Below are positions 3 to 4,805 of a stretch of DNA of 27,554 bases, piece after piece. The stretch is from Thermoproteota archaeon. Lineage in GTDB: Archaea; Asgardarchaeota; Jordiarchaeia; Jordiarchaeales; Freyrarchaeaceae. The first letter of the stretch is position 1. Each line of letters opens with the position of its first letter. The position numbers and the translations under genes were made by a program. The stretch spans positions 1-27,554 of the forward strand of contig JAPDJY010000065.1 of NCBI GenBank assembly GCA_029258835.1, given 5' to 3'. The notes beneath the pieces are model-generated. The model ran no database searches. It was not told where the DNA came from and saw only the letters and a list, made by a program, of their open reading frames with translations.

Positions 3-602
3 GAAACAGTCATTGGTGTGGATTTGGGAGAGTGGAATGTTGCTACTGCTATAGCTATTTCAAGGCAAAATCCAAAGCCTACGAGAGGCAGATTCTGGAG
101 CGGTGCAAAGATAAGAGAAATCAGAGGGAAATATACTCATATCAGAAGGAACTTGCAGAGGAAGAAGAGGATAGACTTGGTTAGAAGAATTGGAAGCAAA
201 GAAAGACGAATAGTTAATCAGATATTACACAAAATTGCAAAAGAGGTTGTAGAATATGCTAAACAGTTCGAAAAGCCAGTAATAGTGATGGAACAACTTA
301 ACGGAATAAGAGAAAACATGAACGGCTCTGCTAAGCTAAACAGAAGACTACATGCTTGGGGTTTCAGAAAACTTCAAAAATATATTGAATACAAGGCAAA
401 CTTAGAGGGAATCTCCATAGTGTATGTTAATCCGAAAAATACTTCGAAAAGATGTCATAGATGTGGGCATGTTACCCAAGTAGATAGTAGGGAATTTAGA
501 TGTCCAAAATGTGGTTTGGTCTATAATCGGGATTTAAACTCTGCAATAAACATAGCCCATGTCTTAATAAAGGCATGGAATGGGGCTGTGAGTAAGTTTT
601 AA
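3..602 (+). CDS. tnpB: TnpB RNA-guided endonuclease (5'-truncated by window edge; C-terminus altered by insert)
   Basis: Frame is open from position 3 (ETVIGVDLG): RuvC-I GVDLG, RuvC-II VIVME, Zn finger CHRC..CPKC, RuvC-III NRDLNSAINI, and the TSKRC motif. Confidence 0.95.
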   Translation, partial: ETVIGVDLGEWNVATAIAISRQNPKPTRGRFWSGAKIREIRGKYTHIRRNLQRKKRIDLVRRIGSKERRIVNQILHKIAKEVVEYAKQFEKPVIVMEQLNGIRENMNGSAKLNRRLHAWGFRKLQKYIEYKANLEGISIVYVNPKNTSKRCHRCGHVTQVDSREFRCPKCGLVYNRDLNSAINIAHVLIKAWNGAVSKF

Positions 603-1106
603 ATACTACAAAGTTTTAGTAATATATATGCACCCCGAACTATGTTACTTAGCGGGTTTGTTTGAGGGAAAAGGGACTATCAGTATTGACGTTATCCAAG
701 AGCCAAAGGGGCGTTATGGTATAAGGCTCAAACCATTAGTGGAATTTACGATTTCAATTGATGATTCCATCATAATAGAGGATTTCAAAAAACATATTCC
801 TGTAAATTGGTTAACGGTTGTAAGAAAGAAAGATAACGCTATTAAAATTAGATTAAGAGACCAAGAAAGCATTAAGCGGTTCATAGAACGTCTTTTTCCG
901 TATTTTAAATTACCAACAACACGGAAAAAGGCAGAACTCATGCTAAAAATACTCTCGAAAGTGGGTAAACATAAGAGGGGTGGATTTTCGAAGGATGAAT
1001 TTATAGAACTACTTAATTTAACTAGGGAACTAAAGTTGCTTCAAAAGAAAGCGAGAAATAGAGCAAAGACAAATATAGACAACCTAATTTCAAAAATAAG
1101 TTGTGA
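592..1106 (+). mobile_element. 515-bp LAGLIDADG-encoding insert (putative archaeal-type intron or homing element) inside tnpB 3' end/omegaRNA
   Basis: TGTGA direct repeat at 587-591 and 1102-1106. Removing the insert restores GGGGC-TGTGAA-CCCC and a TnpB tail GAVNPPRTPR*. Confidence 0.7.
597..604 (+). promoter_or_regulatory. Putative TATA box for leaderless LAGLIDADG transcript
   Basis: TTTTAAAT lies 24-31 nt upstream of ATG 628, with no SD motif. The region is AT-rich, so this could be chance. Confidence 0.4.
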
Positions 1107-1137
1107 ACCCCCCCCGAACTCCCAGATGAAGTCCTGA
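628..1137 (+). CDS. Single-motif LAGLIDADG homing endonuclease family protein
   Basis: N-terminal YLAGLFEGKGTISI, beta-sheet region, FIERLFPYF..KKAELM, and helical tail FSKDEFIELLNL typical of LAGLIDADG proteins. Confidence 0.88.
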   Translation: MHPELCYLAGLFEGKGTISIDVIQEPKGRYGIRLKPLVEFTISIDDSIIIEDFKKHIPVNWLTVVRKKDNAIKIRLRDQESIKRFIERLFPYFKLPTTRKKAELMLKILSKVGKHKRGGFSKDEFIELLNLTRELKLLQKKARNRAKTNIDNLISKISCEPPPNSQMKS

Positions 1138-1192
1138 CGAAAAGTCAGGATGGAACGGGAGGAGCCCCGTCCGTAAGGGCGGGGTAGTTCAC
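1102..1192 (+). ncRNA. TnpB omegaRNA (reRNA) scaffold, 3' portion; 5' stem arm at 582-586; guide expected from 1193
   Basis: GTGAAC (1103-1108) is complementary to terminal GTTCAC (1187-1192), the pseudoknot. Also CTCCC/GGGAG (1119-1123/1157-1161), TCCTGAC-GAAAA-GTCAGGA (1132-1150) and a GNRA-capped hairpin at 1164-1185. Confidence 0.8.
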
Positions 1193-2105: not shown

Positions 2106-3023
2106 TCAGCTACTTTTTTCAACTTTAAAGTAGTCGTACCATCCTCCTCTACTATCAGGGATAAACCTTTTATCGCCCTTGTACCCTGACAGGACCAGCT
2201 TCTTTAGCGTGACCGGGGGTGCGTAGCGCTTCTCACCGGTTTCCCTGTAAACGTACTCTCCAACTCGGAAAGCTGTGTCCAAACCCGTGAAGTCCATTAG
2301 TTCAAACGGACCCATAGGAAAGCGGAACGCAAGTTTGCACATGGTGTCTATCTCCTTTATTCCCGCAATGCCCTCCTCAAACATTCTAATAGCCTCCATG
2401 AACCAGCACATCATGAAGCGAGTCGTGAAAAAACCAGGGGAATCCTTCGCCTCCACAGGTACCTTGCCAAGTCTCTTGGAGAGTTCAACCGTTAGTTGAA
2501 AGGTTTCATCCGATGTCAACGCTCCTCTAACAACTTCTATAAGCTTTATCACGGGGGCAGGGTTAAACCAGTGCATCCCTATGAACCTATCCTTCCTCTC
2601 GACGGAGGAAGCCAGGTCGCTTATGAGTATGGCTGAAGTGTTCGAGGCGAAGACGGTCTCCTCCTTGCATATCTTATCAAGGTAGGAGAAAGCTTCCTTC
2701 TTAATTGCAGCGTCCTCTGGTATAGCTTCAATAAGGAAGTCGACGTCTTTAAGGTCGCTGCGAGACGTAGTCGTCTTGATCCGCCCTATGATCTCCTCGA
2801 CGTCGTCGTCTCTGAGGCGGCCTTTCTCGACAAGCCTCATTAGCCCAAATGGACCATCCCTTATCATAGCTAGAGCCTTACTTAGAGTCTTCTCACTTCT
2901 ACTAAACAGAACGACCTCGTAGCCGCTTCTAGCGCAAACCTGGGCGATGTCACGTCCTATCGTCCCAGCACCAAAAACCCCTATCACCTTCACATCATCA
3001 ACCCTCATCGACACCACCATCAA
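2106..3023 (-). CDS. 3-hydroxyacyl-CoA dehydrogenase
   Basis: GAGTIG Rossmann motif, EAIPE, FASNTS, GMHWFNP, PMGPFELMDFTGLD. Confidence 0.95.
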   Translation of the reverse strand: MMVVSMRVDDVKVIGVFGAGTIGRDIAQVCARSGYEVVLFSRSEKTLSKALAMIRDGPFGLMRLVEKGRLRDDDVEEIIGRIKTTTSRSDLKDVDFLIEAIPEDAAIKKEAFSYLDKICKEETVFASNTSAILISDLASSVERKDRFIGMHWFNPAPVIKLIEVVRGALTSDETFQLTVELSKRLGKVPVEAKDSPGFFTTRFMMCWFMEAIRMFEEGIAGIKEIDTMCKLAFRFPMGPFELMDFTGLDTAFRVGEYVYRETGEKRYAPPVTLKKLVLSGYKGDKRFIPDSRGGWYDYFKVEKSS

Positions 3024-3197: not shown

Positions 3198-4541
3198 TTA
3201 CACGATTTTCGTTGATTCCCATACGCCTATCGCGATCCCGAGCTCCTTATGTTCTTTTCCTGCCTCTTCAAGCGGTATTCCCTTAAGGGCTGCGTCTATG
3301 GCCTGCCTGAAAGCCATTGCTCCTGCTCTAGGTCCTTCGGGGTGTGCGTGTATTCCTCCCCCAACACCTATTACGATGTCTACCCCTAGGTCGAGCATTA
3401 ACTGGGGTACATGCCTGGGGATTATTCCTCCTGAGGGCATCGGGAAAACCTTTTTAATGTGGTAAAGCGGGTACCTGAGCTCCCTAGCTATTCTAATGTA
3501 GGATTCACGTAGGAATGGCGCCTTTCCGTAGGGTGCAGGGTACACCACTATGTCTGCCCCAGCTATTCTTGGAAGCTTACCCATAATCAAGTGGGAACTT
3601 AACCCATATTCTGGAGCCATGTAAATGGCTCCGGTGAAGTCCGGCAGGTGTGCTAGGATCGGTACGTTTATGCTTGGATCTTCAGCTAGGTCCCTCAGCG
3701 TCTCAAGGCCGATGGGGAGAGCATCCACCATTAAAGCGTTGCCTCCGAGCTCTATAACCTTCTCAGCTAGCTCTATGACGCGTGAAGGCCTATCAGTTAT
3801 GTTTATTGTGTATAGGGTTTTCTCGCCTTTCTCCTCGTCGGCTTTATCTATTGCCTCCATGAACTTTACAACTCTGTCCTCTACTTTGTTAAGCTCCATG
3901 TCAGCCAGCAACTCATCGTCTTTTATTATGTCCACGCCCCCAGCGGCAACCTCGTACGCGAGCTCGGCTCCTATCTCTGGAGGAGAGTAAACACAGGGCT
4001 TAATCATGTTGTTAACGAGTGGTCTGTCCTTGACTCCCAAGATCTTTCTAACCCCTTCGATGCCGAACTTCGCACCCTTAAAGCCTTCAAGATACTTCTT
4101 GGGGAAGGCTAAGTCTAGAAGCTTAATTTTTCCTCCAGCCATAAGGTTTCCCGCCACGGTCGCGAAGAGCATGGGGAACTGGGAGCCGCAAAGGTTCACT
4201 ATGGGGAAGGCGATCTGAACTATGTACTGGCGTTCCTCAACGTCCTTAGGCACCGACCATTGGTATGATGGAGCCTCATACACCCCTATAACCCTTGCAA
4301 CATGCTTCTTTCTGACCTCGGGAGTTTCCTTTGGAACCGGAGTCCAGGTTCCAGTACTCTGCTCGACGGCAGCCATCTGGGATAAGCCGTAAGCATCAAG
4401 CCCTGCAGGTAGACACATGTAATATGTGGCAACTATGTATTCTTCTGGGTCAAACCCTTCAGGTAAGGCTTCAGGCACGTCTAAGTACTCGTATTCATAC
4501 CCTGACAAATCTACCAGCCTCCAAAGGGAACGGTAATACAC
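3198..4541 (-). CDS. RuBisCO-like protein (form IV RLP); probable start TTG at 4508
   Basis: EQSTGTW, IKP, GVDIIKDDE, PMPSGG, GGGIHAHP. K177, R295 and H327 equivalents are substituted (IKPCV, AHLP, DIVVY), so it is not a bona fide RuBisCO. GGAGG precedes 4508. Confidence 0.92.
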   Translation of the reverse strand: MYYRSLWRLVDLSGYEYEYLDVPEALPEGFDPEEYIVATYYMCLPAGLDAYGLSQMAAVEQSTGTWTPVPKETPEVRKKHVARVIGVYEAPSYQWSVPKDVEERQYIVQIAFPIVNLCGSQFPMLFATVAGNLMAGGKIKLLDLAFPKKYLEGFKGAKFGIEGVRKILGVKDRPLVNNMIKPCVYSPPEIGAELAYEVAAGGVDIIKDDELLADMELNKVEDRVVKFMEAIDKADEEKGEKTLYTINITDRPSRVIELAEKVIELGGNALMVDALPIGLETLRDLAEDPSINVPILAHLPDFTGAIYMAPEYGLSSHLIMGKLPRIAGADIVVYPAPYGKAPFLRESYIRIARELRYPLYHIKKVFPMPSGGIIPRHVPQLMLDLGVDIVIGVGGGIHAHPEGPRAGAMAFRQAIDAALKGIPLEEAGKEHKELGIAIGVWESTKIV

Positions 4542-4805
4542 GAGGTTTTAAACTTTATGTTCAAAAATTCTATTGGAGAAAGAGGAAAAACACTTTTTTC
4601 TTAAAAACAAGTAACTATGAATGTTTTATTTTCGCAAAAGCATCCAAAACAGAAAAATAAATGGAGAAAATTTTCCTCCTCTTAGAGGAGGAGAGATGTT
4701 CTTTCTTTCGAAACAATAAAGGAGGATGAGAGCGATGGAGTACATAGGTATGCAGTCATTAACGGTGTTCTACATGGTTGAGGTAGCTGGAAGGGTGGAA
4801 GAGAG

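Follow-up and report, generated by a model that had tools for sequence, protein, structure and literature searches.

The window analyzed here, the 27,554-nt contig JAPDJY010000065.1 of an Asgard archaeal metagenome-assembled genome (MAG; the contig is C33 of that genome), begins within the tnpB gene of an RNA-guided transposon, and both the 3′ end of that gene and the first (“nexus”) hairpin of its omegaRNA guide scaffold are interrupted by a 515-bp cassette (positions 592 to 1106, plus strand) that carries a gene of the LAGLIDADG homing endonuclease type. The insertion is real, its position at a conserved site is beyond chance, and both are confirmed. Of its nature, we consider it probable that the cassette is a free-standing, intron-less homing endonuclease unit, with its own TATA promoter and a single-motif, I-CreI-like gene, which parasitizes TnpB elements. 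A sequence-only reading of this DNA had already proposed that a homing-type LAGLIDADG gene had colonized the pseudoknot-forming loop of an omegaRNA scaffold, and the proposal is borne out by insert-free paralogues in the same genome and by recurrence elsewhere.

The boundaries of the insertion can be read directly. TGTGA stands at 587 to 591 and again at 1102 to 1106, around 515 bp, exactly as first reported, and the register of the cassette is ambiguous by 5 nt, 587 to 1101 being equally valid. The cassette is AT-rich, with 33% GC against 49% for the genome. Removing 592 to 1106 gives GGGGCTGTGAACCCC, which rebuilds the stem-loop and extends the TnpB tail from GAVSKF* to GAVNPPRTPR*, another early claim that holds in the sequence. 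Two paralogues of the same genome, on contigs C2 and C1, lack the cassette and are contiguous as GCTGTGAAC; the sequence joined in silico aligns unbroken across the junction with C2:130422-131102 (84% over 684 nt) and with C1:101610-102228 (76.5%). The C2 copy (C2:129866-131101) is a full-length, uninterrupted tnpB of 390 aa that reads ...GGGGGAGCTGTGAACCTCCCCGAAC..., and the 86-nt 3′ part of its omegaRNA is 95% identical to that of the window. The C1 copy is decayed, likewise uninterrupted. Thus, insert-free contiguity, which the sequence-only reading had proposed to look for in the source genome, is found at the junction of both paralogues. The insert itself is single copy, no other DNA copy of it having been found in the MAG.

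An assembly artefact, or a decaying one-off insertion without consequence, would fit with several features of this contig: contamination of the MAG (2.72 Mb in 91 contigs) is 6%, the first position of the contig falls within a repeated tnpB, and a Lys occupies the catalytic position of the encoded protein. The possibility of a chimera had been raised from the beginning, and the junctions were checked in contigs from three public DNA runs of three different studies, comprising sediment, marine-sediment, and hydrothermal-vent metagenomes. Both junctions are bridged by one contig of run X1 (spanning 140 to 1170) and by one of run X3 (452 to 1170), and the 5′ junction by a contig of run X2 (55 to 1064); all three runs hold insert-free relatives too. 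Since independent contigs from three studies bridge the junctions, an assembly chimera is excluded. Moreover, four further loci have related cassettes at the same site, which refutes the one-off reading, and the gene is under strong purifying selection (both detailed below). This rival is, in our judgment, barely credible.

The interrupted scaffold and the inserted gene

A pseudoknot between the nexus stem-loop and the 3′ end of the scaffold is reported to be conserved in omegaRNAs and essential for TnpB activity (bioRxiv 10.1101/2023.11.20.567912). In the C2 paralogue, the predicted fold has a nexus hairpin, GGGGAG-CTGTGAAC-CTCCCC, the loop of which is pseudoknot strand 1; since this matches the nexus stem-loop, the cassette sits in the nexus loop. 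In the window, where all elements of the scaffold lie on the plus strand, the 5′ strand of the nexus stem, GGGG(C) at 582 to 586, is now 515 nt away from its partner, a C-run at 1108 to 1115. The 3′ copy of the duplication continues with AC (1102 to 1108), and the GTGAAC so formed (1103 to 1108) is pseudoknot strand 1, complementary, as the sequence-only reading had pointed out, to the GTTCAC at 1187 to 1192. The latter is strand 2 and the right end of the element: similarity to C2 ends just past GTTCAC(T), and the guide would begin at 1193. Between the strands lie stem-loop 2 (1119 to 1161, with an outer helix 1119-1123/1157-1161 and an inner hairpin 1131-1138/1144-1151) and stem-loop 3 (1165 to 1184, CCCCGTCC GTAA GGGCGGGG). 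Upstream, a further hairpin of the omegaRNA region is predicted within the 3′ end of tnpB (557 to 578, CCATGTCTT/AAGGCATGG) by RNAfold of both the joined sequence and the C2 copy.

Covariation was assessed in an alignment that runs from the loop to the right end and comprises six copies, of which four carry the insert and two lack it. Standard pairs occupy 96% of the cells of the predicted scaffold (pseudoknot and stem-loops 2 and 3), and 13 of the 23 pairs show compensatory changes; none of 500 shuffles was as good, and slid controls reached only 32-43%. Stem-loop 2 has 100% and 92% of its cells paired, with compensatory changes at 9 pairs, and stem-loop 3 is 100% paired, also with compensatory changes. 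The pseudoknot itself covaries, with GTGAAC/GTTCAC in the window, C2, C1, and the related locus L042 and GTGAGC/GCTCAC in loci L037 and L039, an exchange of A-U for G-C. This is the architecture of 10.1101/2023.11.20.567912, a 3′ stem-loop scaffold with a nexus-loop pseudoknot that finishes at the right end. To judge from these alignments, the host RNA is real and still constrained. Two side observations belong here. The nexus G-run (at 581, with one additional G) and the C-run at 1108 to 1115 (8, 7, or 6 C) differ in length between samples. Also, a 159-nt metatranscriptome contig (record 11 of run X19, over window positions 1110 to 1192) represents the omegaRNA of an insert-free paralogue and, past the terminal GTTCAC, runs into tnpB 3′-end sequence that overlaps its own start, which suggests a circular or tandem RNA or DNA form of about 130 nt or else an element nested in another copy.

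The cost to the host can be listed. TnpB gains a 3-codon tail, SKF*, and loses seven residues, its TAA stop (600 to 602) coming from the insert. The nexus stem is split by 515 nt, and pseudoknot strand 1 stays contiguous with the remaining scaffold through the duplication. From this layout, the 3′ part of the omegaRNA would be transcribed behind the LAGLIDADG mRNA.

The inserted gene (628 to 1137, plus strand) encodes a 169-aa protein with a single LAGLIDADG motif. The open reading frame (ORF) matches Pfam LAGLIDADG_1 (PF00961) at E 5.5e-5 and 24.4 bits, with a cutoff of 23.1, and its relatives P0005 and P0007 match the same family at E of about 4e-8; the family profile aligns with I-CreI from end to end (E 2.5e-27, residues 5-162). 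An AlphaFold2 model (predicted local distance difference test score, pLDDT, 91; predicted template-modeling score, pTM, 0.85) has the alpha-beta-beta-alpha-beta-beta-alpha core fold. In Foldseek, its top matches are I-CvuI, I-CreI, and I-MsoI (E 2e-10, TM 0.73-0.84), with I-Vdi141I as a further structural match at rank 46. The sequence-only reading had described a 515-bp LAGLIDADG-coding segment; the LAGLIDADG assignment stands, but the coding region is not confined to those 515 bp, the last 31 nt of the ORF overlapping the 3′ part of the omegaRNA. The linear ORF has a stop of its own at 1135 to 1137. It is the length of the C-run that sets the frame and the tail, and the 7-C variant found in X1 and X3 would lead to ...SCEPPRTPR* at the original TGA of tnpB.

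Pairwise ratios of nonsynonymous to synonymous substitution (dN/dS) among the window, L037, and L039 are 0.13-0.16, at dS 0.75-0.96, and the ratio is 0.16 between L037 and L039, two carriers that have lost tnpB. By this measure, the LAGLIDADG gene is under strong purifying selection. The motif of the window copy reads LAGLFEGKG, with Lys15 (codon AAA, 670 to 672) at the catalytic position, which is D20 in I-CreI. Glu or Asp is found at that position in 21 of 23 aligned relatives, and in all three public runs the same element has A670G, giving Glu15.

Related cassettes in other loci

Among 5.8 billion proteins searched, there were only three close relatives, 77-81% identical in amino acid sequence, in loci L037/38, L039-41, and L042. 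In every one, the same 3′ part of the omegaRNA and the same right end come after the cassette, so the junction, when sought in other pairs of tnpB and LAGLIDADG genes, recurs in L037, L039, and L042. The duplication at the cassette ends is TGTGA in the window, GTGAG in L039, and TGAG in L037. The neighborhoods are unrelated, with cdc6/orc1 beside L037, thiF beside L039, and another context for L042. L037 and L039 have lost tnpB by different internal deletions: both retain the left end, L037 with the first ~30 tnpB codons and L039 with the last ~20 (L042 is cut by the contig end). Since tnpB is deleted and both the LAGLIDADG gene and the scaffold are kept, L037 and L039 are derivatives resembling miniature inverted-repeat transposable elements (MITE-like). 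The sequence-only reading had offered a hyperparasite of a multicopy target as one of its two explanations, and because the same junction recurs in other elements, this is the best reading of the two.

An exhaustive profile search brought in more distant relatives. One of them is P0007, 37% identical, in locus L045, where the cassette lies behind a different, Desulfurococcales-type tnpB, the 18 genome relatives of which are all insert-free. By alignment, this insertion falls after GGGGAGC and before the loop TCTGACC, at the homologous position in the nexus loop. Downstream of the cassette, L045 (560-1325) has a second, diverged 5′ strand of the nexus, which pairs perfectly with the 3′ strand (GGGAAC/GTTCCC) and has co-varied with it; with the 5′ strand rebuilt in this way, the hairpin and pseudoknot are complete without splicing. 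That the scaffold goes on covarying and that L045 has rebuilt its hairpin together suggest that guide function may often be retained. We also note that the L045 cassette is flanked by an imperfect 13-nt repeat, AGATGTGGGGAGC / AGATGGGGGAACC.

Other associations with tnpB differ in form. P0005 (51% identical, L044) has a C-terminal fragment of tnpB directly 3′ of it (L044:130-878, ..CGLKLDRDLNASGNIA..); as a separate observation, another omegaRNA, in reverse orientation, has its 3′ end upstream of this LAGLIDADG gene. The window’s genome has a second LAGLIDADG gene, AT-rich and frameshifted, which occupies, on the opposite strand, the place of the middle part of another tnpB (G000:C13 about 3536-4765, L006:1046-2275; PF00961 E 1.3e-11, TNB domain E 8e-16). 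This C13 gene separates the N-terminal ~65 codons of tnpB from the part running from RuvC-II to the end, and both its site and its orientation are unlike those of the window’s cassette. Near the distant relatives P0010, P0017, P0022, and P0025, no obvious tnpB was seen; thus, association with tnpB can be stated only for the clade P0001-P0007 and the C13 copy. A ~25-nt inverted repeat (GGTTCTGGTAACTCTTCGGGAGATA and its complement, at L065:330-365 and 1020-1060 and at L066:650-690) brackets the P0022 and P0025 genes, which share a downstream CAGAACCCTAT box; these repeats point to what may be another structured-RNA host.

A search of genome-contig and metagenome-contig collections with the LAGLIDADG alignment yielded no further loci, and nothing beyond the window’s own genome was found in the class (11 genomes) or the phylum (400 genomes). 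Both sub-lineages of the omegaRNA hold insert-bearing as well as insert-free members, and occupied and empty members in both mean at least two gains or precise losses.

Intron, parasite, or working part of the transposon

Archaeal LAGLIDADG genes are mostly known from bulge-helix-bulge (BHB) introns of rRNA, and the exact deletion of 515 nt that restores both hairpin and TnpB tail would also be what an intron predicts. From this perspective, the tRNA-splicing endonuclease would cut the insert out of the tnpB/omegaRNA transcript, ligation of the exons would bring back the nexus hairpin and the natural TnpB tail, and the released RNA, possibly circular, would serve as the LAGLIDADG mRNA; were the insert circularized, the ORF would meet a TAA (593 to 595) just after the end of the domain. 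The sequence-only reading had likewise considered that splicing might gate omegaRNA maturation. The junctions do not support it. In an exhaustive scan of the window, L037, and L039, no canonical BHB motif, the hBHBh′ arrangement of a 4-bp helix between two 3-nt bulges, was found at any junction register and none was conserved. Six registers restore the paralogue sequence; among them, a 4-bp central helix forms in only one, with two G-U pairs and without a flanking helix. The best-scoring BHB-like motifs (601/1099 in the window) are all A-U and G-U, lie at non-homologous places in the three elements, and do not restore the loop, and co-folds of the junction flanks agree with the scan in giving no supporting motif. 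Rfam, at E<=1 over positions 1-1500, returned no intron family and no group I or II intron, only two chance matches; moreover, with just 36 nt of the insert non-coding, there is no room for a ribozyme.

What precedes the ORF also speaks for a free-standing gene. A putative archaeal TATA box, TTTAAATA, lies at 598 to 605 (plus strand), 23 nt before the ATG; the box and its spacing are the same in L037, and TATA-like boxes are found in L039, L044, and L045. This layout points to an archaeal promoter for a leaderless mRNA and so to what would be an independent transcription unit. The linear ORF ends at its own stop and need not be circularized to find one, L037 has no 5′ exon partner to be spliced to, and L045 achieves a complete hairpin by rebuilding it downstream. 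In the light of these results, splicing as a gate to omegaRNA maturation is not upheld, and an intron, of the BHB type or any other, is very unlikely. An intein was considered separately and rejected: the ORF is in a different frame from tnpB, which stops at 600 to 602, and the ORF starts at an ATG of its own (628) and ends at its own stop.

For the free-standing cassette, a mechanism can be proposed from what the single motif and the hairpin offer. LAGLIDADG enzymes of the single-motif class act as homodimers on pseudo-palindromic sites. Given its single motif, the enzyme would be expected to do likewise, and its target would be the pseudo-palindromic nexus-hairpin DNA of cassette-free copies, as symmetry suggests. 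An RNA hairpin is an inverted repeat in DNA, and thus the C2 site, GGGGGAGCT-GTGA-ACCTCCCCG, is symmetric at 7 of 9 flanking positions around GTGA, which is the core of the duplication that flanks the cassette. The cut would presumably be made across this central GTGA with the 4-nt stagger typical of the family, at a C2-type site GGGGGAGCTGTGAACCTCCCC, and repair from a cassette-bearing copy would then copy the cassette in. With a multicopy, mobile host, the cassette could also ride along on transposition; the tnpB-deleted, MITE-like carriers stand at unrelated loci.

Several considerations weigh against the proposal that the cassette is a homing parasite. Cleavage and homing are proposed from sequence, the target being read from symmetry only. 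A duplication of 4-5 bp at the cassette ends is not expected from classical homing; possibly it dates from a founding insertion at a staggered cut, or it may be retained for preserving the last codons of tnpB at one end of the cassette and pseudoknot strand 1 at the other end. The window copy, with Lys15, is probably a nuclease-dead variant of an element that is intact elsewhere. The RNA contigs from the X19 metatranscriptome cover only the 3′ part of the omegaRNA, by way of an insert-free paralogue, and not the insert. The family is rare, and the pattern of presence and absence is based on few loci. Finally, the LAGLIDADG proteins group as the window plus L042 and as L037 plus L039. This grouping disagrees with stem-loop 2 but agrees with pseudoknot type, and the agreement is also compatible with largely vertical descent within the transposon lineage, for which recent homing would not be required; four close loci are too few to choose between recent homing and mainly vertical descent.

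The repeated loss of tnpB, with LAGLIDADG gene and scaffold kept, raises a further possibility, in which the cassette is a co-operative or domesticated module and the LAGLIDADG gene a working part of the transposon. It might, for example, take over from TnpB the cutting of cassette-free or transposon-free alleles, or its promoter might drive the 3′ scaffold of the omegaRNA for a TnpB acting in trans. Two independent deletions, in L037 and L039, took tnpB and spared the left end, the cassette, the omegaRNA 3′ part, and the right end, and it is between just these carriers that dN/dS is 0.16. Compensatory changes in the scaffold occur among insert-bearing copies, L045 has rebuilt its nexus hairpin downstream of the cassette, and deletion has produced other fusions of LAGLIDADG and tnpB genes (C13, L044). 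However, a protein-guided LAGLIDADG enzyme has one fixed target and cannot match the varied empty donor sites that TnpB reaches by means of its guide. An active parasite living in functional elements would be expected to show purifying selection and scaffold conservation just as well, and loss of tnpB is common in non-autonomous derivatives. Hence, we regard domestication as unlikely. 

A bolder version would have the LAGLIDADG cassette and TnpB form a stable composite archaeal element, in which the cassette relies on the transposon to move from locus to locus and from genome to genome and, in tnpB-less forms, replaces the RNA-guided nuclease as the enzyme of copy drive, its promoter feeding scaffold to TnpB made elsewhere. 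This seems to us distinctly unlikely, and if it were true, it would mean that a protein-guided nuclease displaces an RNA-guided one within the same transposon, recurrently, in Asgard and Thermoproteota lineages.

Host contig, significance, and relation to known systems

The part of tnpB visible in the window comprises the C-terminal 199 codons (3 to 602, plus strand; Pfam Cas12f1-like TNB domain PF07282, E 1.1e-25), the contig start falling within the gene and its N-terminal half lying off the contig. The sequence-only reading held the RuvC acidic residues to be intact, and Asp, Glu, and Asp can indeed be read in these 199 aa, together with both CxxC pairs of the zinc finger. The protein is 83% identical to that of the full-length C2 paralogue, in which D, E, and D are conserved when it is aligned to Cas12f/TnpB structures. 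The first ~125 nt of the window are identical to C2, and reads in other runs extend upstream into tnpB; it is at this repeat that the contig breaks off at position 1. An element is assigned to IS605 or IS607 by its TnpA, a Y1 or a serine recombinase. Upstream of the C2 paralogue (L002:349-1521, on G000:C2), no tnpA is present; just downstream of it is a convergent, IS607-like pair of tnpA and tnpB. In the C2 TnpB, Trp replaces the last Cys of the zinc finger (CLKWG vs CPKCG), and the protein may be inactive on that account. Downstream of the element in the window, the minus-strand ORFs between 1294 and 4541 look, from their translations only, like genes of ordinary metabolism: enoyl-CoA hydratase-like (1294 to 2094), 3-hydroxyacyl-CoA dehydrogenase-like (2106 to 3023), and RuBisCO-large-subunit-like (3198 to 4541).

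Cas12 descends from TnpB elements, which are now seen as RNA-guided “homing” transposons. The guide-RNA gene of such a transposon would itself be a niche in which another tier of selfish DNA, a parasite of a parasite, can live. A further lesson, should the proposed mechanism hold, is a rule of design, namely that a homodimeric LAGLIDADG enzyme finds a ready-made target in the palindromic DNA that encodes an RNA hairpin. From a more utilitarian perspective, these loci are natural experiments on the tolerance of the omegaRNA nexus for insertion, which is relevant to compact TnpB editors, and the family offers meganucleases of thermophile and Asgard origin with what would be a predictable target. 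It would also account for some “orphan” LAGLIDADG genes, and for some odd pseudogenes of tnpB, in archaeal MAGs. The sequence-only reading knew of no described example, and in our full-text search of the literature on LAGLIDADG with TnpB, IS605, IS607, IS1341, or omegaRNA, no such cassette turned up. A homing endonuclease gene is in itself ordinary; it is the niche, the guide-RNA hairpin of RNA-guided transposons, that is new, and it is occupied in at least two archaeal phyla.

Among the known enzymes, I-CreI, I-CvuI, and I-MsoI share with the window’s protein their fold, their length, and a single LAGLIDADG motif, and the expected pseudo-palindromic target with a 4-nt central cut would be a further likeness. 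Identity is only about 20%, however, and their genes reside in self-splicing group I introns of chloroplast 23S rDNA, whereas the gene in the window has its own predicted promoter, has no ribozyme, and lies in the guide-RNA gene of an archaeal transposon. Free-standing homing endonuclease genes, which spread by “intronless homing”, are represented by the seg and mob genes of T-even phages. Like the cassette as we read it, these are stand-alone endonuclease genes with their own expression signals that spread by the cutting of cassette-free alleles and copying with flanking DNA, and they are patchily distributed at a fixed site. Unlike it, they encode GIY-YIG or HNH enzymes and lie between phage genes, whereas here a LAGLIDADG gene occupies the structured RNA gene of another selfish element.

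The archaeal rRNA-intron enzymes I-DmoI, I-PorI, and I-Vdi141I (Dalgaard et al. 1993, as cited in PMC13565253) provide the precedent for an archaeal LAGLIDADG gene within a structured RNA gene; theirs are BHB introns of rRNA, removed by the splicing endonuclease, whereas no BHB motif was found for the insertion described here, and its host is not rRNA. IStrons, bacterial chimeras of a group I intron with IS605/IS607 elements for which splicing has been demonstrated (10.1101/2023.11.20.567912, PMC4227781), likewise nest two selfish systems in one TnpB element, with the overlap at the omegaRNA. There the partner is a ribozyme, and here it is a protein-coding endonuclease cassette in archaeal hosts. 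Thus, the closest analogue depends on what is being compared: in mechanism it is the free-standing homing gene, in structure it is I-CreI, and in concept it is the IStron, in which intron and omegaRNA compete.

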